Shown here one piece after another: positions 9,024 to 40,622 of a stretch of DNA of 64,000 nucleotides. Where the stretch lies: the NCBI GenBank assembly GCA_026391775.1, contig JAPLDK010000033.1:3404-67403 (forward strand), written 5' to 3'. The position numbers and the translations under genes are program-made. Position 1 is the stretch's first letter; the number at the start of each line of letters is the position of its first letter. The notes beneath the pieces are model-generated. The model made no database searches. It was not told the origin of the DNA and was given only the letters and a program-made list of their open reading frames with translations. This stretch comes from Bacteroidota bacterium. Its GTDB lineage: Bacteria > Bacteroidota > Bacteroidia > Bacteroidales > FEN-979.

Positions 9024-10967
9024 ATGGAAAGATCCAAAGAAAGAGATTTAAGAGATCAAAATAAAGACTTTCCGCCCATGAAAATTTTTGATCACATTGA
9101 TATTGCAGACATTCCAAATGCTTTGCTGATTATAGATCCTGAAACACATACGATTCTTGATGGGAACCAACATGCAAAGGATTTATTCGGGGGTCAGGGA
9201 AAAAATCTGGCAGGATCTGACTGTCAAACGATAGTCTGTGATAATCCCGCAAATTGTCCTTTCAGGGAAAATAACTCAGTCAAATTAAGTCCATCTGAAA
9301 CTATAATCAGAAAAGACGGAAAAGATATACATGTGATCAAGTCTTTCCATGAAACAGTCCTGGATGGAAAGCGGTATATCATTGAAAACATTTATGATCT
9401 GCAATTGCTCAGGGAGGCCGAGATAGAAATTATACAACAGGAAAAGCATTTGAAAGGTATCTATGAAAACGCTACTGTGGGGATGGTCCTGTTGGACATG
9501 AATGGCAACTTTTTCCAGGTTAACAAAGCCTTCTGTGAAATGCTACAGTATTCTGAGGAAGAACTCCTTTCAAGAAAGCTTACCGTAACACATCCCGACG
9601 ATCTCGAATCCAGTGAATATATTCTGGCACAGCTCAGGTCAGGTAAGATCTCAAGGAACATCATGGAGAAACGTTATGTTCGTAAAGACGGGCAGCTCAT
9701 CTTTGTCCTCCATAATGCATCGGTCATGCGGGATCATGAAGGGAATCCGTTATATTTTCTGATCCAGGCACAGGACATAACATATTTAAAAACGGCCCTT
9801 CTCAAAGCAATGGAATCATACCAGCTGAAAACACATTTTCTTCAGAACCTCAGCCATGAAGTAAGAACACCGGCAAATGCGATTTTTGGATTCTGGGAAT
9901 TGATGAAATCACCTTCCATTACCGAATCTGAGCGGGATGAATATATGAATCACCTCCAGGGTGGGGTTGAACAGTTCATGAAGATCATCAATGATATTGT
10001 TGACATGTCAAAGATAGAAACCAGGCAGTTTGAACTTCATCATTCAGTTTTCGATGTGAATACAATGGTTTCAGAATTACACAGGGAATATCATAGGAAA
10101 TTTTATGAACTATGTACAGCCGGGGTCGATTTTACTGTCTTTATGCCCTCCGACTCCTTTGATTTAAAGCTTGAATCGGACTTTGGCAGGGTTAAGCAGA
10201 TCCTGAAAAATCTTTTGGACAACGCATTTAAATTCACCACTTTTGGCCAAATTACAATAGGCTGTCACATACTCCCTGAAAAGGAAATTATTCTTTTTGT
10301 AAAGGACAGCGGTATAGGTATCCCGAAAGAAAAGCTTAACCTGATATTTGGAAAATTCAGGCAGGGGGATGAGTCCAGTACCAGAAAATACGGAGGACTT
10401 GGACTTGGCCTCACCCTGTCAAAAGAGATTGCAGAACTTCTGGGCGGCCGCCTTTGGTTGACATCGGAATACGGAAATGGGACTTCGGTTTTTCTCGCTT
10501 TACCTTATAAAGGAAATGCCTTTGCTGTAAATACTGCTCCAATGGAAAAACAGGAGTATGATATTCCCGATCTGACTGGTAAAACAATTCTTATTGCAGA
10601 GGATGTTGATAATAATTTCCTGGTTCTTGACAGGTTTCTTGTAAAAAGCAATGCAAGGATACTGAGGGCAAGAAACGGGCTTGAGGCCATTGAAATATGC
10701 CGGAACGAGACACAAATTGACCTGGTGTTAATGGATGTACAAATGCCTGTTATAAATGGCTATGAAGCAACACGTGAGATTCTCAGGATGAAACCGGGAA
10801 TACCTGTAATTGCACAAACAGCTTATTCCGTAGATTTCGATGAGCAAAGTGCAGTAACAGCAGGATGCATTGCATACATGGTGAAGCCCCTGAATATGCA
10901 CGAAGTGTTTTCACTGGTGAGTAAATATGTAACATTACGCAACAATAACGAGTCTGTTGACCATTGA
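9024..10967 (+). CDS. PAS-domain hybrid sensor histidine kinase / response regulator
   Basis: Two PAS regions (THPDD, RKDG), SHEVRTP H-box, NLLDNAFKFT, GLGLGL, C-terminal REC (LMDVQMP). Confidence 0.92.
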   Translation: MERSKERDLRDQNKDFPPMKIFDHIDIADIPNALLIIDPETHTILDGNQHAKDLFGGQGKNLAGSDCQTIVCDNPANCPFRENNSVKLSPSETIIRKDGKDIHVIKSFHETVLDGKRYIIENIYDLQLLREAEIEIIQQEKHLKGIYENATVGMVLLDMNGNFFQVNKAFCEMLQYSEEELLSRKLTVTHPDDLESSEYILAQLRSGKISRNIMEKRYVRKDGQLIFVLHNASVMRDHEGNPLYFLIQAQDITYLKTALLKAMESYQLKTHFLQNLSHEVRTPANAIFGFWELMKSPSITESERDEYMNHLQGGVEQFMKIINDIVDMSKIETRQFELHHSVFDVNTMVSELHREYHRKFYELCTAGVDFTVFMPSDSFDLKLESDFGRVKQILKNLLDNAFKFTTFGQITIGCHILPEKEIILFVKDSGIGIPKEKLNLIFGKFRQGDESSTRKYGGLGLGLTLSKEIAELLGGRLWLTSEYGNGTSVFLALPYKGNAFAVNTAPMEKQEYDIPDLTGKTILIAEDVDNNFLVLDRFLVKSNARILRARNGLEAIEICRNETQIDLVLMDVQMPVINGYEATREILRMKPGIPVIAQTAYSVDFDEQSAVTAGCIAYMVKPLNMHEVFSLVSKYVTLRNNNESVDH

Positions 10968-11005: not shown

Positions 11006-14000
11006 ATGAAAAAAATCATTGCTTTCCTTCTTTTTATCTTCCTGGCCTCCGCTGCGATCTGCCAGGACAATCCTCTCTGGATGCGTTATTCAGCAATTTC
11101 TCCCGATGGACAAACAATCCTTTTCTGCTATAAGGGCGACATCTGGTCGGTCCCTTCTGCAGGCGGGTCAGCCGCTCCTCTTACACTCACCGATTCCTAT
11201 GAATATTCGCCGGTATGGAGCCATGACGGTAAAACCATTGCATTCGCTTCCGACCGCAACGGCAATTTCGATATTTTCGTTATGCCCGCAGCAGGAGGCG
11301 CAGCATCAAGGCTTACTTTCATTTCAAACAAGGAAGTCCCCAGCAGCTTTACTGCGAATGATAAAGATGTGATTTTTTCGGCTTACCGCCAGGATGTTTC
11401 AACAAACGCCCAGTTTCCCATTTCACTGATGAGCGAGCTCTATACCGTACCGGTTGCCGGGGGAAAAGTCTCGCTTTTGCTGCCCACGCCGGCACTCGAA
11501 GCCACACCGACATCCACAGGCGACAAAATGATATTTGAAGATATCAAAGGTTATGAGAACGAATGGCGCAAGCATCATACTTCAGCCATTGCCCGTGATA
11601 TCTGGGTTTACGACTTCAATTCGGCAAAATACAAAAAGCTTACCAGTTTCAATGGAGAGGACCGTAACCCGGTGTTTGATGCAAATGACAATGATTTCTA
11701 TTACCTGAGCGAACAAAGCGGTTCCTTTAATATATTTAAGAGTTCTCTGTCGGATCCTTCCAAAACCACCGCTATCACACATTTTTCTAAAAACCCTGTA
11801 CGTTTTCTTACCAGGTCCAAAAATAACATGCTTTGTTTTACTTATGACGGAGAGATCTATACCCTCCAGCCCGGCGGGGAACCAAAAAAAGTCAGCGTCA
11901 GGATCAATGCCGACGGCCGCAGTCCTCAGGAACGCATTACCCCGGTAAATGACGGATTCACCGAAATGAGGCTGGCCCCGAACGGAAAGGAGTTTGTATA
12001 TGTTTTCCGCGGGGAGATCTTTGTAAGCAGCGTCGATGGCGGAATTACCAAGCGAATCACCAATACACCTTACCAGGAACGCAACGTGAGCTTCAGCCCC
12101 GACGGCCGTTCACTTGTTTATGCAGCGGAAGTCAATGGCAGCTGGGATGTTTATACAACTTCCATTGTACGAAAAGAGGAACCCTATTTCTATGCCTCAA
12201 CCGTTTTGAAGGCGGAACCGCTTGTTGCTACCGCTGCTGAGGAATTCCAACCCGAATATTCCCCCGATGGCAAGGAAGTGGCTTACCTTGAGAACAGGGT
12301 AGCGCTCAATGTCATCAACCTGGCAAGTAAAACGACCCGGATGATCATGCCGGCCAATGTGAATTACTCCTATGCCGACGGGGACCAGTACTATCAATGG
12401 TCGCCCGACAGCAAATGGTTCCTGGTGCAGTTCTCATATCCCGAACGGATCTTCACTCCCGAAGTTGGCCTTGTTTCCGCCGACGGCAAGGGCGAGATCC
12501 ACAACCTGACCCTTAGCGGTTATAATGATTATTATCCAAAGTGGTCGGTCGATGGCAAGATGTTCATTTGGGGAAGCGACCGCGACGGCACACGCGACCA
12601 GGGAGGCAACCTCTCAAGCGATGATGTATTTGCCATGTTCCTTACCAAAGCTGCCTTCGAGAGGTTCAAACTTTCAAAAGAGGAGCTTGCCCTGGTAAAA
12701 GAACAGGAAGAAAAGGCCGAAAAGGAGAAAAAGAAATCCGATGAAAAGGCAAAATCCAAAACTGACAAGAAAGCAAAAACCGATACCGCTGCAAAGGATT
12801 CTGCAAAGGTAAAGGTGGTTATCGACTGGGAAAACCTCACTGAGCGTAAGGCCAAACTCACCGTTCACACTTCGCCGGCCAGCGACTGGTTGCTTTCGAA
12901 GGACTGCGAAAAGCTCTATTACCTTACCAGTTTTGAGAAGGATAATGACCTCTGGATGACCGATCTGAGAGCCAAAGAAACCAAGCTGTTTGCAAAGATC
13001 GGGGCTAAAAGTGCTAACATACAGCTTTCTTCGGATGGTAAATTTATTTTAATGATGGCTGATGGCAAACCCATGAAGATAGACGCCGAGAGCGGCAAAG
13101 CAGAACCCCTGAAAACCTCGGGCGAGATGCTTATCAAACCTGCCGATGAACGTTCCTATATCTTCGACCATGCCTGGAGGCAGTTCAAGGAAAAGTTCTA
13201 TGTAGTGGATATGCAGGGCGTCGACTGGGATTATTATTACAAGGTCTATAAGAAGTTCCTGCCCTATGTTAATAACAATTATGATTTTGCAGAAATGCTG
13301 AGCGAGATGCTGGGCGAGATGAATGCCTCACATACCGGATGCGGCTACCGTTCAGGGAAGCCGAACACCGACCAGACCGCCGACCTCGGGCTTTTCTACG
13401 ATTACGATTACAAGGGCAAGGGATTAAAGATATCCGAAGTCATTGAAGGCGGACCGCTTGATAAGGCCATATCGAAAGTTAAAGCGGGAAATGTTATTGA
13501 AAAACTCGATGGAATTGTGCTCAACGACACCATGGATTTTTACAGTCTCCTGAACCGTAAAACCGGCAAGTTAACCCTGCTTTCGGTGTATAATCCTTCA
13601 ACCGGCGACCGCTGGGAGGAAAGCGTAAAACCCATCAGCATAGGCGAAGCCAACGAACTGCTGTACAAACGTTGGGTGAAGAACCGCCGTGCCGAAGTGG
13701 AGCAGCTTTCCGGCGGAAAGATCGGCTATGTTCACGTACGTTCCATGGATGATGCCAGTATGAGGGTGGTTTTTGAGGAAGCCCTTGGTCGCAATTTTGA
13801 AAAGAAAGCACTGATAGTTGATACCCGCTTCAACGGGGGCGGTAATATTCATGAACAGCTTTCCGATTTCCTGAGTGGTAAAAAATACATCGATATTATT
13901 CCCCACGGGCAGTATATCGGTTCCGAGCCATATGACAAATGGGTGAAGCCGTCTATCGTGATCATTGGCGAAAGCAATTACTCCGATGCTCACTTGTTCC

Positions 14001-14260
14001 CCGTTGCCTATAAGCTGAAGAACATAGGGAAGACACTTGGAATGCCTGTTCCGGGCACAGGTACTTTCGTATGGTGGGAAAGCCAGATCGATCCTACCCT
14101 TGTTTTTGGTATTCCTATGGGCGGATGGCGCATGCCCGATGGCAAATTCTGTGAAAACAACCAGCTGGAACCGGATATCAGGATTGCAAACGACCCTGGC
14201 ATTCTCTCATCGGGCCACGATCAGCAGATCGAGGCTGCGGTGACGGAGCTGATGAAATAA
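11006..14260 (+). CDS. S41 family tricorn-like protease with PD40/beta-propeller and PDZ domains
   Basis: SPDG/WSxDG propeller repeats, ASHTG, DTRFNGGGN, ESNYSDAH; start MKKIIAF at 11006. Confidence 0.92.
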   Translation: MKKIIAFLLFIFLASAAICQDNPLWMRYSAISPDGQTILFCYKGDIWSVPSAGGSAAPLTLTDSYEYSPVWSHDGKTIAFASDRNGNFDIFVMPAAGGAASRLTFISNKEVPSSFTANDKDVIFSAYRQDVSTNAQFPISLMSELYTVPVAGGKVSLLLPTPALEATPTSTGDKMIFEDIKGYENEWRKHHTSAIARDIWVYDFNSAKYKKLTSFNGEDRNPVFDANDNDFYYLSEQSGSFNIFKSSLSDPSKTTAITHFSKNPVRFLTRSKNNMLCFTYDGEIYTLQPGGEPKKVSVRINADGRSPQERITPVNDGFTEMRLAPNGKEFVYVFRGEIFVSSVDGGITKRITNTPYQERNVSFSPDGRSLVYAAEVNGSWDVYTTSIVRKEEPYFYASTVLKAEPLVATAAEEFQPEYSPDGKEVAYLENRVALNVINLASKTTRMIMPANVNYSYADGDQYYQWSPDSKWFLVQFSYPERIFTPEVGLVSADGKGEIHNLTLSGYNDYYPKWSVDGKMFIWGSDRDGTRDQGGNLSSDDVFAMFLTKAAFERFKLSKEELALVKEQEEKAEKEKKKSDEKAKSKTDKKAKTDTAAKDSAKVKVVIDWENLTERKAKLTVHTSPASDWLLSKDCEKLYYLTSFEKDNDLWMTDLRAKETKLFAKIGAKSANIQLSSDGKFILMMADGKPMKIDAESGKAEPLKTSGEMLIKPADERSYIFDHAWRQFKEKFYVVDMQGVDWDYYYKVYKKFLPYVNNNYDFAEMLSEMLGEMNASHTGCGYRSGKPNTDQTADLGLFYDYDYKGKGLKISEVIEGGPLDKAISKVKAGNVIEKLDGIVLNDTMDFYSLLNRKTGKLTLLSVYNPSTGDRWEESVKPISIGEANELLYKRWVKNRRAEVEQLSGGKIGYVHVRSMDDASMRVVFEEALGRNFEKKALIVDTRFNGGGNIHEQLSDFLSGKKYIDIIPHGQYIGSEPYDKWVKPSIVIIGESNYSDAHLFPVAYKLKNIGKTLGMPVPGTGTFVWWESQIDPTLVFGIPMGGWRMPDGKFCENNQLEPDIRIANDPGILSSGHDQQIEAAVTELMK

Positions 14261-14297
14261 ATTCATTTACAATACCTTAGCAAAATTATTTTTCACA

Positions 14298-14429
14298 TTG
14301 TATAAATATTCAACACATGTTGAATATTTATACAACACTTATAATAGTACTGATATTCATTCTATTATAAGATTTACATGAAGTCAGTGTATGTTTTTTC
14401 AACACTTTGTTTCGTTTATTTTTTCAACA
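14298..14429. promoter_or_regulatory. Four putative enhancer (UAS) sites, (T/C)GT-N11-ACA with a TTCAACA half-site; the first two form a perfect 18-bp inverted repeat
   Basis: 14299-14315 TGTATAAATATTCAACA, 14318-14334 TGTTGAATATTTATACA, 14388-14404 TGTATGTTTTTTCAACA, 14413-14429 CGTTTATTTTTTCAACA. Confidence 0.65.
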
Positions 14430-14480
14430 CCACATTTTTAATCATTTGAATTTCTTATACTTAGAACGTATTTTTAGCTT

Positions 14481-14495
14481 TGGCATCATTATTGC
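14481..14495 (+). promoter_or_regulatory. Sigma54 (-24/-12) promoter
   Basis: TGGCATCATTATTGC gives GG-N10-GC and matches TGGCAC-N5-TTGC; 38 nt upstream of ATG 14534; a sigma54 activator is encoded in the same locus. Confidence 0.8.
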
Positions 14496-14533
14496 CTAAT
14501 AATGTATAGACATAAATAAGAAATCTTAAAATA

Positions 14534-16225
14534 ATGAAAACCAAAATCTTCACCCTGGTTTGTTTAATACTTTTTTTCTATTGCAACAATCTCAGCAGTA
14601 AAGAAGCAAACAATAAAACCAATTCCGCATCGGGTACAACAAATGTTTACAGCAGTCCCAGGTTATATGACATTGCAAACAAATGGGCGGGAGAATATGC
14701 CCTTTCAAATCCCGGCCAGATCGTTAAGGTTATAAAAACCGAAGAATCAGGGATTGCATCCATTATTAATAAAGGGGATAACATATGCTTTGTTACGAAA
14801 GAAGTTATAGCCTCGGATAAACAGGGACCGGTCTTCCAGGTGGTTGTCGGCAGGGAAATCATTGTTCCCGTAATCAGCCCGAAAAATCCGTTTCTTAAAG
14901 AAATATACGAGAAAGGTATTTCCCGTACAGCCCTGGCCACGAGCCTTGGAACTCCGGGAAAAATGAAATGGGGGACTCTGCTGAACAATAGCCAGAAAAC
15001 CCCTGTAAGATATATTATCCTCGATGATGATTTTATAAAAGCAGGAGTTTCCGGTTTTTTCCATTCTGACCAGGTCTGTATGGAGAGAATAAAAAGTGAA
15101 AACCGGCAAGCTCTGATCTCAGCGGTGCAGAACGACCCTTATGCTATCGGTTTTTGCCGGATGACCGATATTCTCAACTCAAACACATCAACCTTTGCCG
15201 GGAACCTCCTGCTGATGCCAATCGACAAGAATGGCAATGGAAAGATGGATTATATGGAGAAGATCTATGATAATTTCCAGGATTTCTCAAGGGGGGTCTG
15301 GATCGGGAAATACCCGAAAGCCCTGACCAATACTGTTTATTGCATTTCCAAAACTCAACCGTCCGGCAAACCGGAGATCGCTTTCCTCAACTGGATTCTT
15401 ACATCCGGCCAGGCCTTAATGCCGGCAAACGGGTATTCCGATCTGGTAAGCAACGAAAGACAATCACAGCTCTATAAGCTCAACGAACCTCAATATATTG
15501 CCGAAGCTCCTGAAGAAACCAATTCCCTGTGGAAAATTACAATCACAATTCTGGCATTTGTGCTCCTTATCAGTTTCATGCTCGATATTGTGATTAACAG
15601 GTTCAGGACCGGCAATTCAAAGGCAACAGGAATATTGCAGGAAAGGACAGAAGGATTTGGCCAAAGAAATGTGATCGTTCCAAAAGGACTTTATTTTGAC
15701 AAGTCCCATACCTGGGCATTCATGGAACAGGACGGGATGGTCAAAATCGGTATCGATGATTTTCTGCAGCATGTCACCGGCCCTATCACCAGCATCGGGA
15801 TGAAAAGCCCCGGGGTAAGGATCAACAAAGGTGACCAGCTTTGCATCCTTATTCAAAAAGGGAAACATTTGATTGTTCATTCCCCCGTCTCAGGGATTAT
15901 CAGGGAATTTAACCCCGTCTTATCTTCCAATTCATCCGTGATCAACAACTCACCATACTCCGGGGGATGGGTTTACAGGCTGGAGCCCAGCAACTGGTCG
16001 AGGGAAATTGAATTTTTATCAATGGCCGATAAATATAAAGCCTGGTTAAGCAGTGAATTTACACGACTCAGGGATTTTCTGGCCTCTTCATTCCAGGCAG
16101 ATGCTCCCGGGTACGCCCGGCTCACTCTCCAGGATGGCGGTATTCTGAAAGACAATATCCTGGCAGATCTCGGCCCAGAAATATGGGAAGATTTCCAAAC
16201 AAAATTCATCGATACGGTCCGATAA
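14534..16225 (+). CDS. PstS-like periplasmic binding domain, TM helix and glycine cleavage H-like cytoplasmic domain (fusion protein)
   Basis: KWAGEY, IVPVISPKNP, AVQNDPYAIGF, PIDKNGNGKMD, GKYP (PBP-like); TM ITITILAFVLLISFML; LYFDKSHTWA, KIGIDDF, SPVSG, INNSPYSGGW (GcvH-like). Confidence 0.8.
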   Translation: MKTKIFTLVCLILFFYCNNLSSKEANNKTNSASGTTNVYSSPRLYDIANKWAGEYALSNPGQIVKVIKTEESGIASIINKGDNICFVTKEVIASDKQGPVFQVVVGREIIVPVISPKNPFLKEIYEKGISRTALATSLGTPGKMKWGTLLNNSQKTPVRYIILDDDFIKAGVSGFFHSDQVCMERIKSENRQALISAVQNDPYAIGFCRMTDILNSNTSTFAGNLLLMPIDKNGNGKMDYMEKIYDNFQDFSRGVWIGKYPKALTNTVYCISKTQPSGKPEIAFLNWILTSGQALMPANGYSDLVSNERQSQLYKLNEPQYIAEAPEETNSLWKITITILAFVLLISFMLDIVINRFRTGNSKATGILQERTEGFGQRNVIVPKGLYFDKSHTWAFMEQDGMVKIGIDDFLQHVTGPITSIGMKSPGVRINKGDQLCILIQKGKHLIVHSPVSGIIREFNPVLSSNSSVINNSPYSGGWVYRLEPSNWSREIEFLSMADKYKAWLSSEFTRLRDFLASSFQADAPGYARLTLQDGGILKDNILADLGPEIWEDFQTKFIDTVR

Positions 16226-16245
16226 ACTTTCCGTTTCGTGTTTGT

Positions 16246-16278
16246 AAAAAAACTGGTGTCAGATCGCCGGTTTTTTTT
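16246..16278 (+). terminator. Probable intrinsic terminator between the fusion gene and the kinase
   Basis: A7-CTGGTG / TCAGAT loop / CGCCGG-T8; the G-U pairs form only on the + strand. Confidence 0.55.
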
Positions 16279-16300
16279 ATATTGCAGAGAAAATCAACAT

Positions 16301-17953
16301 ATGGATAAGAATAGTACGATAAAGTCAATTTTCAGAAAGTACGTACAATTCCGTTCATCTATATACAGCCGGGTTGTTTTTGTCATCTTTGTTTCTTCCG
16401 TTTTACTTTTTGTTTCATTCAGCATCATTTTCCGTTCGGTAAACGAACAATACCTGAATACCGTGATCCGCCAGAATGGCAATAACATCGGTTCCATTGT
16501 CGGCGGGTCACTTTATCATTCCATGCTCGAGAATGACAAAAGCACCCTGCAGAACACCTTGGATATAATAAATACCATGCCGGGCATCGATGAGGTCAAT
16601 ATGTACGACAGCAAGGACAACCTGGTGTATACATCCATTCCTTCCGATACAAACAATTATCACAGCAACCCCAATTGCATCAGCTGCCACAACAATCTTA
16701 AAACCATGTTTCCCGGGAAAGGGAAACATTACAAGATCATCGATGCCGACAACTATTGCAGGATGACCTACAAGGATAATAAAAGCCGGCACCTGCTGAT
16801 CAAATTGCCGATTCTTAACGAGAAATCCTGTTACGAGAGTTCCTGTCACGCACACCCGGCCAGGGACGAGGTACTTGGTTCCCTTATCATAAAAATCCCC
16901 CTTGCCGACCTTGACGCAGCCATACAGAAATCATCGACCGAATTTTTCCTGCTGGCCATCCTTACTACCTTGATCCTGGTTGGGGTTCTGATAATATTTA
17001 CCCGGCAAAGAATTAAAAAACCCTTAAATGCTTTGGTAAAAGCCAGCACCGCCGTTGCTCAAGGCGATACCAGCACACGGCTCGAGATCAAGCCCAACCA
17101 GCTCGAAGACATGAAGATGGTTTCCCAGGCTTTCAACGAAATGCTTGATAACCTGCAGGCCGCCACAAACGAACTGGAAAACTGGTCCCAGCAGCTGGAA
17201 TATAAAGTAAGGAAGAAATCGGAAGAATTAAGCGCCGCCCAGAATGAGATGATCCATATCGAACGGCTTGCTTCCTTGGGGAAATTGTCATCCTCGGTGG
17301 CTCATGAAATCAACAACCCCTTATCGGGGATCCTCATCTATGCAAAGCTTATTTATAAACAACTCAGCAACCCCGAATTATATGCAAGCAAGCGGGAGTC
17401 CATGCTGAAACATTTAAAACTGATCGAGAACGAAGCGAAGCGCTGCGGTGATATTGTAAAAGGCCTTCTTGAGTTTTCGAAAAAAGACCAGGAGGATTTC
17501 GAACCCAGGCATTTACATGAGATCCTGCTGGAAACCTATGAACTGATGACCCATCCCATTAAAATTGCAAATATTCATTTTTATACCGATTTCCTTGCAA
17601 CCTCCGACCTGATCTATTGCAGCCCAAACCAGATCAAGCAGGCCTGTATAGCCATACTGGTAAATTCAAGCGAGGCAGTGCATGAGAACGGGGAAATAAT
17701 CATCCGGACACTTAATCCAAATGAAGAAACCCTGAGATTCGAGATCATTGACAATGGCATCGGGATCTCTGCGGAAGACATCCCCCATATTTTCGAACCT
17801 TTCTTCTCGACCAAGCAAAAAGCCAGCGGGATCGGCCTCGGGCTGGCGATTGTCCACGGAATCGTACAAAGCCATAACGGCAAAATACAGGTGAAATCCG
17901 AGCCGGGAAACGGAACTGCCTTTTCAATAACATTACCCCTGATCAGAAATTAA
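16301..17953 (+). CDS. Sensor histidine kinase with periplasmic CxxCH motif, HAMP, HisKA and HATPase
   Basis: Two TMs, CISCH and CYESSCH in the periplasmic loop, VAHEINNPL H-box, FEPFFSTK..GIGLGL; start MDKNST at 16301. Confidence 0.9.
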   Translation: MDKNSTIKSIFRKYVQFRSSIYSRVVFVIFVSSVLLFVSFSIIFRSVNEQYLNTVIRQNGNNIGSIVGGSLYHSMLENDKSTLQNTLDIINTMPGIDEVNMYDSKDNLVYTSIPSDTNNYHSNPNCISCHNNLKTMFPGKGKHYKIIDADNYCRMTYKDNKSRHLLIKLPILNEKSCYESSCHAHPARDEVLGSLIIKIPLADLDAAIQKSSTEFFLLAILTTLILVGVLIIFTRQRIKKPLNALVKASTAVAQGDTSTRLEIKPNQLEDMKMVSQAFNEMLDNLQAATNELENWSQQLEYKVRKKSEELSAAQNEMIHIERLASLGKLSSSVAHEINNPLSGILIYAKLIYKQLSNPELYASKRESMLKHLKLIENEAKRCGDIVKGLLEFSKKDQEDFEPRHLHEILLETYELMTHPIKIANIHFYTDFLATSDLIYCSPNQIKQACIAILVNSSEAVHENGEIIIRTLNPNEETLRFEIIDNGIGISAEDIPHIFEPFFSTKQKASGIGLGLAIVHGIVQSHNGKIQVKSEPGNGTAFSITLPLIRN

Positions 17954-17965
17954 GATAAAGAAATA

Positions 17966-19303
17966 ATGGCCAGAAAAATTTCAATTTTAGTCGTTGATGA
18001 TGAAGAATCGGTAAGAGATTCATTAAGCAACTGGTTTATTGAAGACGGCTACCGGGTGGAGTGTGCCGAAAATGCGAGGAAAGCTCTGCTTCTCATCGAA
18101 TCCTCCTATTTTGACATCATCCTTGCAGATATCAAGATGCCCGGCATGGACGGGCTGGAGATGCTGAGGCGGATCAAATCACTGAGAAACGATGCCATCG
18201 TGATCGTGATGACAGCCTTCGCTTCGGTCAATACGGCAGTCATGGCCCTGAAGGACGGGGCTTTTGATTATGTTACAAAACCATTTGATCCCGATGACCT
18301 TTCCCATCTGATACGGAATGCTTCAAAACAGATCCTCCTGGCCCAGGAGAACGAAACCCTTAGAAACAAAGTTGTTTCCCTGGAAAGTGTCGAAGACCTG
18401 ATCGGGAACAGCGAGGCCATGAAAAAGGTTCTCAAGCAGGTAGAGAGTGTTGCACAGTCAAATTCTTCCGTCATTATCACAGGTGAAAGTGGTACCGGGA
18501 AAGAATTGATAGCCAGGGCGATTCATGCGAATTCCTCCCGGAAATACTATCCCCTGGTGAGCGTGCATTGCGGCGCCCTTACCGAAAGCCTGCTCGAAAG
18601 CGAGTTGTTCGGCCATGAGAAAGGAGCATTCACCGGTGCGATGTATAACCGGAAAGGCAGGTTTGAGATGGCCGACAGCGGTACCATCTTCCTGGATGAG
18701 ATTGCCACCATTTCCCCCAAGATGCAGATCGAACTCCTGAGGGTCCTCGAAACAAAATCCTTCGTGAGGGTTGGCGGGAACAAAGAAACTTCTTCAGACT
18801 TCCGGGTCATTTGCGCAACCAACCGGGACCTGAAGAGCATGGTCGAACAGGGTTCCTTCAGGGAGGATCTCTATTACCGCCTGAATGTTGTGAACATTAA
18901 CGTGCCTCCCCTGCGCGAAAGGGTTGAGGACATCCCCCTTCTGGTCGATTACTTCATAAAAAAATACTGCACTACGATGAACAAGCCGCCCATCAATATA
19001 GATGACGCGGCAATGCAAAGGATGGAGGAATATCCCTTTCCCGGGAATATACGTGAGCTTGAAAACATGATCGAAAGGGCTATCGTAATCGGAAACGGGA
19101 AGAAAATCACCTTAAAGGACCTGCCCCTGGGTAAGGATATGATCGATAATTCAATAGAAAGCCTGGATGATTTCGAAAAAACCTTCATCCTCCAAATCCT
19201 TAATAAATACAGCTGGAATATCACACGCACGGCCAAGGCATTGAAAGTCGACAGGGTGACGCTTTACAACAAGATCAAAAAATATGATCTGAAGCCTGAT
19301 TAA
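17966..19303 (+). CDS. Sigma54-dependent response regulator (NtrC/AtoC family)
   Basis: REC (ADIKMP), GESGTGKE, ESELFGHEKGAFTGA, FLDEI, Fis-type HTH. Confidence 0.95.
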   Translation: MARKISILVVDDEESVRDSLSNWFIEDGYRVECAENARKALLLIESSYFDIILADIKMPGMDGLEMLRRIKSLRNDAIVIVMTAFASVNTAVMALKDGAFDYVTKPFDPDDLSHLIRNASKQILLAQENETLRNKVVSLESVEDLIGNSEAMKKVLKQVESVAQSNSSVIITGESGTGKELIARAIHANSSRKYYPLVSVHCGALTESLLESELFGHEKGAFTGAMYNRKGRFEMADSGTIFLDEIATISPKMQIELLRVLETKSFVRVGGNKETSSDFRVICATNRDLKSMVEQGSFREDLYYRLNVVNINVPPLRERVEDIPLLVDYFIKKYCTTMNKPPINIDDAAMQRMEEYPFPGNIRELENMIERAIVIGNGKKITLKDLPLGKDMIDNSIESLDDFEKTFILQILNKYSWNITRTAKALKVDRVTLYNKIKKYDLKPD

Positions 19304-19371
19304 TGAGAAGTCCGTTTTGGTCAATACCCTGATTACCCTTAACTGAAGTATTTTTAATTCATGTTTTCCGG

Positions 19372-19926
19372 ATGGCTCAACAAAATATCACATTGATCTC
19401 TTACGGGTATTTCGGGAAACAATTTCTTGAGAAGATCGCAGAGGCAGTAAAACAGGAATATAAATTTCCTGTGAATTTCAAAGAATCCCATTTGGACCTA
19501 AGTGAATTTTTCGACCCGGGAAGAAGGCAGTATAACGGGAATAAATTATTGCATGCGGTTGAGGCCATATCCAGGCCGGAGGCATTGAAAACCGTGGGAT
19601 TATTCAGCGTTGATCTTTTTATCCCTATCCTGACTTATATTTTCGGGCAGGCTCTTTTGAACGGACGTACCGGAATTGTCTCACTCTACCGCTTAAGTAA
19701 TGAACGTTACGGGATAGAAGCCGATGACAAACTGCTCCTGGAAAGGTTTACCAAGGAAGTTATTCACGAATTGGGCCATACCTTCGGATTGATCCATTGT
19801 ATGGCTCCAAGCTGCGTTATGAGGTCCAGTACTTATGTTGAAGACATCGATCAGAAAAACCAGAATCTCTGCCACCATTGCCGGGAACAACTATCCACGG
19901 TAATACCTGATCAGATTATTGGTTGA
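19372..19926 (+). CDS. Archaemetzincin (M54) zinc metallopeptidase
   Basis: [19 protein letters not shown] Met-turn, C..C Cys4 zinc site. Confidence 0.9.
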
Positions 19927-22242
19927 ACTGTCATGATCGGGCTGCTTCCGCCTGTTCTGCAATTCGGGGATGATCTTCATGGCCAGGATTTTTCCCAGTT
20001 CCACTCCCATTTGGTCGAAGGGATTGATCCCCCATATTACGCCCTGGGTATAAACGGCATGTTCATACATCGCAACCAGCTTGCCCAGTATCCCGGGCGT
20101 GAGCTTATCCATGAAGAATGTTGAAGACGGCCGGTTTCCTTCGAAAACCTTATGGGGCACAAGATGATCGGGAACACCTTCTTTTTTTACTTCGTCTGCG
20201 GATTTTCCGAATGCGAGGGCCTCACCCTGCGCGATCATATTTGCCATCAGGTAGTCCTGATGAAGCGGAAGCGGGTTTAATGAAGTTCTGAATCCCAGGA
20301 AATCACAGGGAATAATGGAAGTTCCCTGGTGGATCAGCTGATAAAACGAATGTTGTCCGTTAGTTCCCGGTTCCCCCCAGTAAACCGCTCCGGTCTGGTA
20401 ATTGGTTTTCGTCCCGTCCAGGGTGACATGTTTCCCGTTGCTTTCCATCGTCAGCTGCTGCAGATAGGCCGGGAAGCGGCTTAGATAGTTATCATAGGGT
20501 AAAACAGCCTGGGTCATTGCCCCGAAGAAATCAACATACCACACACCAAGCAGTCCCATGATCACCGGGATGTTCTTGTCAAACGGCACAGTCCGGAAGT
20601 GTTCGTCCATCTGGTGAAAGCCATCCAGCATCAGATAAAAATTATCAGGACCAATGGCAATCATGGTTGATAAGCCGATAGCGGAATCCAAGGAATACCT
20701 TCCGCCCACCCAGTCCCAGAAACCAAACATGTTACGGGTGTCAATCCCGAATGCGCTTACTTCTTTTTCGTTGGTAGAGACAGCCACAAAGTGGCGTGCA
20801 ACAGCCTGTTCATTAACAAGTTTATCCAACAGCCATTTTCTTGCTGTACGGGCATTGGTCATTGTTTCCAGGGTAGTAAAGGTCTTTGAGGAGACAATGA
20901 ACAGGGTTTCTTCAGGCAGCAAATCCCTGACGGCCTCTGCGAAATCATTTCCATCGATGTTGGATACAAAACGGAAAGTAATATCCCTCTGAGCATAAAA
21001 CTTCAATGCCTCGTAAGCCATCACCGGCCCAAGATCCGATCCTCCGATGCCAATATTCACTATATTCCTGATGATTTTACCGTTATGACCTTTCCATTCA
21101 CCATACCGTATGGCAGTTGCAAATTCAGCCATCTTTTCAAGGACTTCATGCACATCAGGAACCACATTATGGCCATCAACCATGATAATCGCTCCCTTTG
21201 GCGCCCTTAAGGCAGTATGCAGCACCGCTCTGTTTTCGGTGATATTGATTTTTTTTCCTGAAAACATGGCTTCGATTTTCTCGCTTAAACCTCTTTCCCC
21301 GGCCAGCTGTAAAAGCAGGTTCAGGGTTTTGGCTGTAATGCGGTGTTTTGAAAAGTCAAAATATATCCCCAGCTCCTCTAAACTAAACCGTTCTGCACGG
21401 TTTGAATCCTCGCTGAACATGGATCTCAGGGATATGTTTTTTATCTCCTGAAAGTGCTTCTCCAGTAACTTCCAGGCGGGTGATTCAGTTAATTGGTTTT
21501 TCATTTTTAGTATACATTTTAATTTGAATGCCGATTTCTGATCAAGCAGCCAGACCAGTTCCCCGTTTTCGGGCCTTACAAGGGCTGCAGGCAGATGATC
21601 CCAACCACTTAGCTGGTTTATAATCCGGGCAACCTTTGAGGCCTTGGCTTCTCCGCTTGCAAGAATTACAACTGTTTTTGCATTGTTGATGATTTTCCCG
21701 CATGCAGTGATCCGTTTCTGCTTCGTTTCCGGATGTTCCGTGACTTCAAAAAATTTATCACTGTGGAAGAGATCGATGTTAGCTGGAAAAATGGAAGCAG
21801 TATGACCGTCTTCGCCAAGCCCAAGCATCAGGAGATCAGCCCGGGGAATCCCATTATATTGATTCACATGCCTGGCGAATAGTTCAGAGTACTTTACGGC
21901 TTCTGCGGCAGGGTCTTGTTCTCCATGGATCCTGAATATATTGGCTGAAGGGATAGGAACATGCTCCAGCAGGTTCTCGCTGGCCATCCTGAAGTTGCTG
22001 TCCTCCGATTCAGGCCCGACACAACGTTCATCTCCCCAGAAAACCTTAACTTTATTCCAGTCAATACTGTCTCTGCAGCATAAAACAATTTCCCTGAAAA
22101 TTTTTTTTGGCGTGGTTCCTCCTGATAATACCCATGAGAATTTTTGGTCACGGGGTGTTTCCCTGACGCAAAGTTCAAGAATTGAAGCAAAATATTGCGC
22201 TAATTCATCAAGAGTTTCAACTATTTTTATTGTAGTCCCCAT
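19891..22242 (-). CDS. pgi: In-frame 6-phosphogluconolactonase (Pgl, about aa 1-246) and glucose-6-phosphate isomerase (Pgi, from Met at 21504)
   Basis: [25 protein letters not shown] (Pgl); [41 protein letters not shown] (Pgi); no stop between the parts. Confidence 0.88.
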
Positions 22243-38717: not shown

Positions 38718-40622
38718 TCAGTTGCCAGTAAGGGTAAAACTGAAAATTGTTCCCTTCCCGGGCTCGCTTTGGGCACTGATTGTGCCACCATGTTTTACAA
38801 TAATACGTTTAACTGTTGCAAGACCGATGCCACTGCCTTTGAAATGTTCATCGGTGTGCAACCGCTGGAAAGGAGTGAACAACTTCCCGGCCTGTCCCAT
38901 ATCAAAACCAACGCCATTGTCCCGGATAAAAATAAACTTCCTGTTTTCAGTTAATTCGCTTCCGATGATAATTTCCGGATTTTCAACTTTACTGCTGTAT
39001 TTCCATGCATTATCGATAAGATTCTGAAGTGCAATATGAAGCAGCCGGAAATCGGCCTGAACTATAATGTTCTCTTCTATCCTGCAGGTATAGGTCTTTC
39101 CCGGATAAGTCAGTTTTAAATCCTCACAAATTTTTGCAGCCATATCACTCAGGTGGCAGGGCGCCCTGGTGACAGTCTGACGTGTGATCCTCGATAATGT
39201 AAGCAGGTCCTCGATAAGCCGGTTCATCAGCCCGGTTGATTCAGTAATATGTTTGAGTAGGTCTTTACCTGTGACATCAAGCAATATTTCATAATCATCC
39301 CTTAGGAACATGCACAAACTTTCGATCCTGCGCACAGGAGCCCTCAGATCGTGGGAAACCGAATAGGAGAATGCTTCCAGCTCCTGGTTGGTCGATTCCA
39401 GTTCTCCAAGAACCCTGGTAATTTCCTCCTTTTGCTCCTGGACCAGCAGGTAAGCTTTTCTCTGTCTTCGGCGGCTGTTGATAATAACAAACACGGCAAT
39501 GACCAGGATAATGATACCGAAAATCGCGCCAAAAATGATCACCATCTGCTGCCTGTTGTGCAATTTCAGCAATTCTACCTGCTTCTCCTTTAATTCCTCC
39601 TCATTTTTCCAGCTCAGAACCGAAGCTTTGCTTACAATCTGGGCCCCGTAAACACTGTCATAATCGATAAAGGCGGCGTTGAGATAACCGAGGGCCATGT
39701 CATTACGGCCCTTAGCTTTGTAAATATCCGACAATAACCTGTTGGCAGTGTAACTCTGGATCAGATAACCCAGTTCACACGAGACCTTAAGCCCTTCCAG
39801 AGCAAAAACCTCGGCTTCCCTGAGATATTGATTACGAAGAGAACCTGCATCCTGGCTTTGCCGTAACCTTATTCTGCCCAGTGTAGTGGAATTTTCTGCA
39901 ACCATCCGGGTTGATCCTATGGCCTGGAAATATTCCAGCCCGGTCCTGATCAATGCATAAGCAGTATCCACCCTCGACTGTGCCATATACATATAACCAA
40001 ACCTGTTGTTGACTATCATGATCTCCCCGCCCAGGTGATTTTCCTTGCTCATTTGCAGGTGGATCTGCATGTATTTCCCTGCCGAATCAAACTGGTCCAG
40101 GTTACGGTAATTGTTCCCGAGAGTCCCGTAGTTCCTGGCTTTCCATAAAATATCCCTGTTATAAGGCAATAAGGCAGTTGCTTTGCGCATATACTCTGCC
40201 GTAATCCCTTTGTCAAGATCTTTGTAGAGATAGGCAAGCATAAGGTAAGTGGCACAAAGGTGGTTGTTCTCCTTAAGGCTTTCGAAGATCGCCTCTGCCT
40301 TCAGAGCATGATCTATTGACTCTGGAAGCCTTGATAAAATATGATAAATAAACGTGAGGGAATAATGTGCCAGCCCTTGCCCGTACTGAAAATTTATCTT
40401 TTCGGCAAGCTGCAGGGCATCCAGTCCTGGGTTCAAAGCCTCCCTTGGATTGATATTCCGAAGTTCATAGCAAACTGTTGTGAGTATCTTTACTTTGTCG
40501 GTATCCTCTTTCATTCCGGGCAATTCTGCAATGAGTGAATCGATCAGCGGCCTGCCAACTTTTTGAGCATGGGTAAGCTGAAAAATTACCAAAGCCAGAA
40601 GGGTGAGTATGAGGTTCCTCAT
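38718..40622 (-). CDS. TPR-like periplasmic sensor histidine kinase
   Basis: Helical repeats, TM, FSYSVSHDLRAP, NAWKY, GSGIGLA. Confidence 0.9.
   Translation of the reverse strand: MRNLILTLLALVIFQLTHAQKVGRPLIDSLIAELPGMKEDTDKVKILTTVCYELRNINPREALNPGLDALQLAEKINFQYGQGLAHYSLTFIYHILSRLPESIDHALKAEAIFESLKENNHLCATYLMLAYLYKDLDKGITAEYMRKATALLPYNRDILWKARNYGTLGNNYRNLDQFDSAGKYMQIHLQMSKENHLGGEIMIVNNRFGYMYMAQSRVDTAYALIRTGLEYFQAIGSTRMVAENSTTLGRIRLRQSQDAGSLRNQYLREAEVFALEGLKVSCELGYLIQSYTANRLLSDIYKAKGRNDMALGYLNAAFIDYDSVYGAQIVSKASVLSWKNEEELKEKQVELLKLHNRQQMVIIFGAIFGIIILVIAVFVIINSRRRQRKAYLLVQEQKEEITRVLGELESTNQELEAFSYSVSHDLRAPVRRIESLCMFLRDDYEILLDVTGKDLLKHITESTGLMNRLIEDLLTLSRITRQTVTRAPCHLSDMAAKICEDLKLTYPGKTYTCRIEENIIVQADFRLLHIALQNLIDNAWKYSSKVENPEIIIGSELTENRKFIFIRDNGVGFDMGQAGKLFTPFQRLHTDEHFKGSGIGLATVKRIIVKHGGTISAQSEPGKGTIFSFTLTGN

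Follow-up and report, generated by a model that had tools for sequence, protein, structure and literature searches.

What does an archaemetzincin do at the end of a signalling operon? The question is raised by four genes in a 64,000-nucleotide (nt) stretch of DNA from a Bacteroidota bacterium of the Bacteroidales (assembly GCA_026391775.1, contig JAPLDK010000033.1), referred to below as the window. All four open reading frames (ORFs) lie on the + strand and encode, in order, a fusion of a PstS-like and a GcvH-like domain, a sensor histidine kinase with heme motifs, an NtrC-type sigma-54 activator and an archaemetzincin of peptidase family M54 (Table 1). The probable answer, if not a secure one, is that the locus represents a reduced version, with four genes, of a seven-gene cassette that is conserved in Bacteroidota and regulates itself, with M54 acting on the DGG tails of GcvH-like proteins. 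Archaemetzincins occur in archaea, bacteria and animals. One account of the family, in the part available here, states that very little is known of its biological importance (PMC3427221). Among the papers listed by literature searches on archaemetzincin, none treats a role in a bacterial operon, and the available part of PMC13325395 deals with DUF6775, a structural relative, and not with M54 function.

Relatives of the fusion protein are encoded in 532 species genomes, of which the best 80 loci (L001-L080) were retrieved. Gene forms were counted in the 57 loci with at least 7 kb of downstream DNA, leaving out 23 shorter ones, and upstream regions were compared in the 78 loci with enough upstream DNA; the window itself lies outside these loci. 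Fusion homologues of the same architecture number at least 1991, and all named sources are Bacteroidota metagenome bins. The original prediction had described four co-directional genes at 14298-19926 as an undescribed sigma-54 signalling module that should recur in other genomes. The span, the ORFs and their domains are correct, and the genes do recur: by tblastn on the 80 loci, fusion, kinase, activator and M54 stand in this order nearly everywhere, and they do so in 54 of the 57 fully covered loci. The distance between fusion and kinase is mostly about 3 kb.

The unit, however, is larger than the four genes that had been proposed. The full order is GcvH-like protein 1 (the fusion), an iron-sulfur (FeS) protein, an HmcC/NrfD-like membrane protein, GcvH-like protein 2, the heme-c kinase, the activator and M54. 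Among the 57 loci, 48 have this seven-gene form, six have the four-gene form and three combine the redox genes with incomplete regulators; these three genomes and that of L018 all hold an activator-M54 pair elsewhere. The cassette is self-contained, because all-against-all clustering of flanking ORFs gave no other neighbour common to more than nine loci. The window therefore carries what looks like a deletion derivative, without the HmcB/HmcC-like module and the second GcvH-like protein. Its genome measures 3.19 Mb in 80 contigs and is 90.7% complete, so genes missed in it are reported as not found and not as absent. The window lacks the HmcBC/HybAB-type pair, and a search of the genome did not find it elsewhere. 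A NrfD-like gene was not found in seven other four-gene genomes, and the three seven-gene controls all gave a match.

In a quick maximum-likelihood tree of 73 fusion proteins, at least five independent changes between the long and short forms are required, and the trio (FeS, NrfD, GcvH-like 2) appears to have been lost at least five times in the family. The ratio of nonsynonymous to synonymous substitution rates (dN/dS) in short-form lineages is 0.10-0.16 for the fusion and 0.07-0.11 for M54, not counting the near-identical pair L002-L004 (about 0.30 at dS 0.03-0.05). The least saturated pair, L001-L002, gives 0.147 for the fusion at a dS of 0.75. The low ratios and the recurrence indicate that the reduced form is maintained and is not decaying. 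One four-gene locus, L020, has a short NrfD-like remnant between fusion and kinase, 67 nt after the fusion gene, that looks like a deletion scar.

The cassette extends beyond the class of the window. When 300 high-quality genomes, sampled evenly across the phylum, were searched, an M54 orthologue (31-56% identity) was found in 28 genomes from other classes. An activator orthologue (45-60% identity) adjoins M54 in 28 of 29 M54 loci, the window's own being excluded; the order differs in L097, L110 and L111. Sixteen distant regions read GcvH-like, FeS, NrfD, GcvH-like, kinase, activator, M54, and the first GcvH-like protein in them consists of a transmembrane (TM) helix, the GcvH-like domain and the tail only. 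Since these cassettes lack the PstS-fold domain, that domain, which the original prediction had made part of its receptor, is a Bacteroidia-specific addition. L115 has two GcvH-like genes and kinase-activator-M54 without FeS/NrfD. Five distant loci have kinase-activator-M54 alone, and a NrfD-family match lies elsewhere in five of these five genomes (three matches are strong, with 55-63% identity, and one is at 40%); contig ends explain two cases. In several distant loci (L113, L115, L118, L123, L126-L128), a cysteine motif, C-x13-C-x5-C-x2-C, replaces the TM helix of the downstream GcvH-like protein. This N-terminal motif could be a metal or FeS site.

The M54 of the window scores 164.8 bits with the NCBIfam model archmetzin (NF033823), above its cut-off of 145, and matches Peptidase_M54. 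H132, E133, H136, G139, H142, C143, C148, M150, C167 and C170 are invariant in 35 sequences. The archaemetzincin signature is thereby present along with the family-model score, and the protein is a putative protease. A candidate partner emerged from complex prediction with M54 (35-row alignment) and fusion residues 375-563 (70 rows), each with its own unpaired alignment. The contact between M54 and the fusion tail has an ipSAE of 0.66 (0.67, 0.66 and 0.65 in separate runs), compared with 0.25 for the best control. A mark of 0.66 is reached by 58 of 80 solved complexes and by 2 of 110 mismatched pairs, which is a rough guide for own alignments. The runs share at least 93% of contacts, and the predicted local distance difference test score (pLDDT) of the partner is at least 88. 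On the M54 side, the contacts comprise residues 84-98 (a strand edging the cleft), 129, 132-133, 136, 141-142, 144 and 151-155, and thus the HExxHxxGxxH cleft. On the fusion side, they comprise tail residues 529-539, in which Q533, G535 and G536 are invariant, and helix 507-520. In the model, the most conserved segment of the tail takes a substrate-like pose in the M54 cleft, which supports binding. The GcvH-like domain had been suggested as a possible contact of the kinase, the activator or the protease. A fusion-M54 contact now has model support, but it would run through the tail and the preceding helix and not through the barrel.

The tail is shared by the GcvH-like proteins of the cassette. 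The motif Q[DEN]GG occurs in 81 of 81 fusions and in 58 of 60 second GcvH-like proteins, the two exceptions being truncated ORF calls, and an aligned x-DGG occurs in 17 of 17 GcvH-like proteins of distant classes. GcvH-like protein 2 (240 aa, TM-anchored) shares 36% identity with the C-terminal half of the fusion, and the similarity extends over the tail. Full-length matches that cover the tail were obtained in 21 genomes of the 300-genome sample, every one of which belongs to the 28 M54 genomes. True GcvH, which lacks the tail, gave cross-matches in 282 genomes. As kin are not independent, this is a pattern and not a statistical test. Apart from the fusion, no credible ORF in the genome of the window carries a DGG tail. 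Tentatively, and with less confidence than the reading of the locus as a whole, M54 may be a dedicated processing protease or a tail-locking partner of the membrane-anchored GcvH-like proteins, in a heme-c sigma-54 circuit that senses redox state or a gas and also controls an HmcBC-type quinone module. As a dedicated protease, it would cut at or beside the universal DGG of the tail. Barrel-only GcvH-like ORFs of about 390-480 aa, with the tail unmatched, were also seen in families where no M54 orthologue was found (genomes G051, G067, G107, G115, G131, G151, G159, G183, G195, G203, G234, G235 and others). The only matches to fusion residues 375-563 in a protein atlas were GCV_H clusters (170-215 aa, scores of 0.89-0.93) that stem from Thermodesulfobacteriota and Acidobacteriota; they are leads.

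Upstream of the fusion gene, the bare -24/-12 pattern is weak evidence alone. It has two matches in the window where 0.86 are expected, and 24 of 100 shuffles reach two; the second exact TGGCA-N6-TTGC lies at 38818-38832 on the - strand. Of the 78 loci, 73 have the motif GG[CT]A-N6-[TC]TG[ACG] within the 150 nt that precede the fusion gene, where shuffles lead one to expect 0.35 loci, and the promoter call is strong because of this phylogenetic footprinting across relatives. The GG and GC elements, their spacing, the conservation and an rpoN gene in the genome (contig C59) all agree with a sigma-54 promoter, and RpoN dependence is predicted. The four upstream sites that had been noticed comprise three exact TGT-N11-ACA sequences and a degenerate one. 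In the family, the sites sit at fixed offsets of about -235, -216, -146 and -121 from the ATG, with at least two in 74 of 78 loci and at least three in 60 of 78. Their consensus is the palindrome GTGTTGAA-w4-TTCAACAC. When the whole genome was scanned with a position weight matrix (PWM) of the family sites, the three best matches all fell at the fusion promoter, and no second cluster was found. The proposed feedback loop is consistent with this, as the only site cluster lies at the fusion gene's own promoter. The fourth best match in the genome is a lone activator-type site (C13:10300, PWM 18.7), about 90 nt 5′ of a paralogous sigma-54 activator gene (C13:10394-11764, 39% identity).

The kinase has two candidate heme motifs in its periplasmic part, CISCH (CxxCH) and CYESSCH (Cx4CH), and both are kept in 61 of 61 orthologues examined, in agreement with the heme-motif kinase first proposed. 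Residues C126, C129, H130, C153, M155, C177, C182, H183 and H185, numbered from ATG 16301, are invariant in 30 kinase sequences. The sensor model consists of a long helix and a five-stranded sheet, with the heme motifs within insertions. Its nearest structures are the extracellular Cache/PAS domain of WalK and the heme-c sensor GSU0935 of Geobacter (3b42, the second Foldseek match, E 6.5e-5, 18% identity). The activator matches the Pfam families Response_reg (7.7e-31), Sigma54_activat (2e-71) and HTH_8 (3.4e-11) and has GAFTGA in its translation, as expected of an NtrC-type bacterial enhancer-binding protein. Two loci, L057 and L063, have a tandem duplication of the gene for the heme-motif kinase, and L063 also has a partial second M54 copy.

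Between the fusion gene and the kinase gene lies a terminator- or attenuator-like hairpin (-14.7 kcal/mol, z -2.8). It sits between the fusion stop at 16225 and ATG 16301, and because of this position GTG 16238 is argued not to be the kinase start. Upstream of the kinase gene, 34 of 63 loci have a comparable hairpin whose stem shows compensatory changes; the variants among relatives include CCGGTG/CACCGG, CTGTTG/CAACAG and CTGGCG/CGCCAG. We infer that it is an attenuator parting the structural from the regulatory genes. By setting the fusion gene apart from the regulators, the hairpin revises the original prediction. In the loci upstream of the kinase gene, a conserved TTTTTTTT(G/A)TA follows the hairpin. 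A second sigma-54 promoter hidden in the region of the T-run was considered and ruled out by its spacing. In a consensus scan of 14000-20300 for sigma-70 promoters and terminators, the counts did not exceed those of shuffles, and the hairpin was missed by that scan. Two exact 151-nt contigs of the 5′ part of the fusion gene (14562-14712 and 14688-14838) were found in one of three metatranscriptome runs. Both come from a lake metatranscriptome library, and the DNA run of the same sample holds the locus. The contigs are a weak hint of fusion expression, as DNA carry-over is possible. The metatranscriptomes also gave one diverged contig from the activator gene of another organism; the remainder of the stretch was without coverage in these runs, which carries no weight.

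Table 1. Features of the four-gene locus in the window and of the three inner genes of the full cassette (positions are those of the window; REC, receiver domain)
Feature	Position	Strand	Description or basis
Activator site 1, TGT-N11-ACA	14299-14315	+	left arm of an 18-nt perfect palindrome; top PWM score genome-wide
Activator site 2, TGT-N11-ACA	14318-14334	+	repeats, conservation, PWM
Activator site 3, TGT-N11-ACA	14388-14404	+	repeats, conservation, PWM
Activator site 4, degenerate CGT-N11-ACA	14413-14429	+	many relatives have the complete TGT-N11-ACA at this offset (about -121)
Sigma-54 type -24/-12 promoter, TGGCAT-N5-TTGC = TGGCATCATTATTGC	14481-14495	+	pattern and conservation
Fusion protein ORF	14534-16225	+	563 aa
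Fusion protein, predicted layout			signal/anchor; periplasmic PstS-fold about 34-316; TM helix 332-358; cytoplasmic GcvH-fold 387-485
Fusion protein, C-terminus			helix 498-519; conserved tail LTLQDGGILKD 529-539; terminal helix 548-562
Kinase ORF	16238-17953	+	opens at GTG 16238; probable true start ATG 16301, giving 550 aa
Hairpin, A7-CTGGTG-loop-CGCCGG-T8	16246-16278	+	between fusion gene and kinase
Sensor histidine kinase	16301-17953	+	TM1, Cache/PAS-like periplasmic domain, TM2, HAMP, HisKA, HATPase_c
NtrC-type sigma-54 activator ORF	17966-19303	+	REC, AAA+ (GAFTGA), HTH_8
Archaemetzincin (peptidase M54) ORF	19372-19926	+	184 aa, cytoplasmic
Inner gene 1, Tat-signal 4Fe-4S protein			286 aa; HmcB E 8e-90, HybA E 6e-66; below equivalog cut-offs
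Inner gene 2, NrfD-family membrane protein			408 aa; HmcC E 4e-122, HybB E 1e-74; below cut-offs
Inner gene 3, second GcvH-like protein			240 aa; TM-anchored

The 5′ neighbour of the locus is a tricorn-type protease gene, and a convergent pgl-pgi/zwf/gnd cluster lies on the 3′ side. In that cluster, a 783-aa fusion of Glucosamine_iso (6-phosphogluconolactonase) and phosphoglucose isomerase is encoded at 19891-22242 on the - strand, with zwf and gnd next. The end of this gene overlaps the M54 stop by 36 nt, and the same neighbour is found in nine related loci. Upstream of the tricorn-type protease gene is a second histidine kinase ORF (647 aa, 9024-10967, + strand), which was grouped with the cassette kinase through the catalytic core only.

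The cassette may work as follows. The Cache/PAS-like periplasmic domain of the kinase would hold two c-type hemes and read the redox state of the periplasm or a gas ligand. The kinase would then phosphorylate the REC-AAA+-HTH activator, a step that is established for the family. The activator would bind the four TGT-N11-ACA sites, 67-181 nt 5′ of the -24/-12 element, and open the sigma-54 promoter of the structural genes, as conservation suggests. The hairpin may let part of the transcripts reach kinase-activator-M54, which would provide autoregulation. Finally, M54 would bind and probably cut the x-DGG tail common to the GcvH-like proteins of the cassette, as the complex model suggests, and these proteins would be its dedicated substrates or partners. 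As no other cytochrome is encoded in the cassette, the HmcBC-type, quinone-linked module may trade electrons with the kinase hemes. Deletion of the trio in the lineage of the window would have left sensor, activator and protease together with a single tail-bearing membrane protein, and this membrane protein is still under purifying selection. The PstS-GcvH-like protein would then be the sole remaining output, which fits a closed sensory loop.

Several points weigh against this account. The form frequencies rest on the best 80 of 532 loci and say nothing on the other 452, and the tree is a quick search with SH-aLRT support values only, with dS saturated for most pairs. At the -12 element, 66 of the 73 motif-bearing loci have TTGA, and only three have the canonical TTGC that is seen in the window. 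The PWM training set included the window's own sites, so that only the missing second cluster is informative. The complex score is a measure of model confidence from unpaired own alignments, with one control at 0.25, and a metzincin cleft may take many extended peptides. The kinase sensor model is of moderate quality (pLDDT 70.8), and the sensor gave no Pfam match to the heme-Cache family DUF3365 at E <= 0.01. The evidence for heme-c maturation in the window's genome is a CcmF-like gene; ResB (PF05140) was not found there. Any role assigned to the HmcBC-like pair with respect to the kinase hemes is entirely speculative.

An unlikely reading, and still the best placed of the alternatives, keeps the four genes as a self-contained module, in which the fusion, induced by the activator through a feedback loop, serves the kinase as accessory co-receptor, and M54 is only a passenger. 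Such co-receptors are known from other systems, for example TorT for TorS and ZraP for ZraS. The repeated origin of the four-gene form and the purifying selection on the fusion without redox genes agree with it, as do the enhancer cluster at the fusion promoter, the only one in the genome, and L115, in which the regulatory trio accompanies two GcvH-like genes without FeS/NrfD. Three observations point the other way. The HmcBC-like pair and the second GcvH-like gene stand inside the operon in 48 of 57 loci. The PstS domain, missing in other classes, cannot be an ancestral co-sensor. M54 follows the activator in nearly all loci, near and distant, and its binding to the tail has model support, which does not suit a passenger.

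The close GcvH fold raises a further possibility, that the GcvH-like domains are lipoylated swinging-arm carriers and that the cassette encodes a redox enzyme of the dihydrolipoyl or sulfur-relay type, linked to quinone. An analogue would be the LbpA proteins of sHdr systems, which bind lipoate. The fusion matches Pfam GCV_H over residues 386-506 (E 4.5e-22), and the barrel superimposes on the E. coli H-protein (3a8i) with a template modelling (TM) score of 0.91 and a root-mean-square deviation of 1.6 A. K444 (IQKGK) is invariant in 74 Bacteroidia sequences and aligns with the E. coli lipoyl lysine in one hidden Markov model (HMM) alignment. The genome has an LplA-like ligase gene and, on another contig, a separate true gcvH, and the full cassette offers HmcBC-like partners. 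Ungapped alignments, however, place G443 at the lipoyl position, and the GcvH-like proteins of other classes have no conserved lysine at this site. The protein has the fold but falls below the family models (61.7 against 115.85 for TIGR00527 and 73.7 against 117 for NF002270), and lipA (TIGR00510) was not found in the genome. In addition, the FeS partner is periplasmic, as its Tat signal predicts, whereas the GcvH-like part is placed in the cytoplasm by the positive-inside rule. Because the lysine is not conserved family-wide, the alignment is ambiguous and lipA was not found, lipoylation is apparently not a defining trait of the family. The two GcvH-like proteins of the cassette are probably not lipoyl carriers, and the carrier reading as a whole is quite improbable.

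Still more remote is a phosphate- or oxyanion-responsive system with a Pho-like regulon, in which the PstS-like domain binds phosphate or a like anion. The fusion model has a pLDDT of 76.2 (74-sequence alignment), with a conserved segment of low confidence between helix 498-519 and the last helix. With Foldseek, residues 34-316 match best to phosphate-binding proteins (4jwo, E 1.4e-13; 1twy, TM score 0.74). The predicted fold is thus that of PstS, and residues 2-303 give a weak PstS-family match, but TIGR02136 is reached with 21.6 bits against a cut-off of 206.6. The domain is lineage-specific, the kinase sensor is not PhoR-like and carries heme motifs, and no pst or pho genes occur among the conserved neighbours. 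Inside the PstS-fold domain, a near-invariant loop, DKNGNGK-DY-E (residues 231-242, 15224-15259), has a spacing that we take to be that of an EF-hand Ca2+ loop (D1, N3, N5, G6, D9, E12).

That the four genes are a functionless remnant decaying after deletion of the redox genes, as the missing trio and the degenerate fourth activator site might suggest, is just as hard to sustain, given four intact ORFs, family-invariant residues kept in fusion, kinase sensor and M54, low dN/dS in both genes examined, a reduced form in at least five independent lineages and the weak hint of transcription.

The reduced-cassette reading places the locus close to several known systems. Among NtrB/NtrC-type systems, ZraPSR has an induced envelope protein, ZraP, that feeds back on its kinase. 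The window shares with these systems a HAMP-HisKA-HATPase kinase, a REC-AAA+-HTH_8 activator with GAFTGA, upstream TGT-N11-ACA sites, a -24/-12 promoter and a target operon beside the regulators. The best NCBIfam matches are AtoS/ZraS for the kinase and AtoC/ZraR for the activator, but every score stays far under its equivalog cut-off, at 198 against 646 for AtoS and 481 against 714 for AtoC. What differs from these systems is the pair of c-heme motifs in the kinase sensor, the nature of the targets (GcvH-like membrane proteins and an HmcBC-like pair) and the fixed place of a protease gene behind the activator. The regulatory logic is of a known kind; for the gene composition, the literature searches gave no described counterpart. 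The kinase sensor resembles the heme-c sensors GSU0582/GSU0935 and sCache_heme in its extracytoplasmic Cache/PAS-like fold with covalent-heme motifs in an insertion, and differs in having two motifs, CxxCH and Cx4CH, instead of one; heme binding is predicted. For sCache_heme (DUF3365), a large heme-c Cache domain family with nitric oxide (NO)-sensor properties is described in the available part of a recent paper (PMC12889525, 2026).

The Tat-signal FeS and NrfD-like membrane proteins of the full cassette correspond to HmcB/HmcC of the Hmc complex of Desulfovibrio and to HybA/HybB of E. coli hydrogenase 2 (NrfC/NrfD-type), and they stay below the equivalog cut-offs (301 against 420 and 408 against 550). 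The respiratory or hydrogenase genes that the original prediction had proposed to look for nearby are found in part: the HmcBC-like pair lies inside the loci, but no multiheme cytochrome, hydrogenase or molybdoenzyme partner is encoded in the cassette, and the only heme-c protein is the kinase. The window M54 shares with AmzA/AfAmzA and AMZ1/2 the HEXXHXXGXXHC-X4-CXM...CXXC signature, the size and the cytoplasmic location, as far as the available part of PMC3427221 describes them; the spacer from the Met-turn to CXXC is 16 residues here and 17 in the published consensus. It differs in its fixed operon place behind a sigma-54 activator and in its predicted DGG-tail partner. The GcvH-like proteins have the barrel-sandwich fold of the H protein and of GcvH-like relatives (TIGR03077, not_gcvH; NF045810, GcvH-related protein of Desulfovibrionia) with a TM score of 0.9, and differ from the H protein in that the fusion is membrane-anchored, carries a C-terminal extension of about 75 residues (helix plus DGG tail) and lies below all NCBIfam cut-offs.

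The cassette thus joins a two-c-heme-motif kinase, an HmcBC/HybAB-type module, two GcvH-like proteins and M54, and literature searches for this archaemetzincin/sigma-54/NrfD-HmcBC/GcvH combination found no description, as the original prediction had supposed for the smaller set. In the full cassette, the HmcBC/HybAB-type module has no catalytic partner other than the heme-motif kinase. M54 has a fixed operon place across several classes of the phylum and a concrete candidate substrate. The repeated, clean loss of exactly three inner genes provides natural 'mutants' for the dependence of the parts on one another, and there are cultured relatives, Draconibacterium and Mariniphaga, among the carriers. 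If true, the tail-directed role of M54 would give the archaemetzincins their first physiological substrate and pathway, and it would offer a starting point for work on the orphan AMZ proteins of archaea and animals.

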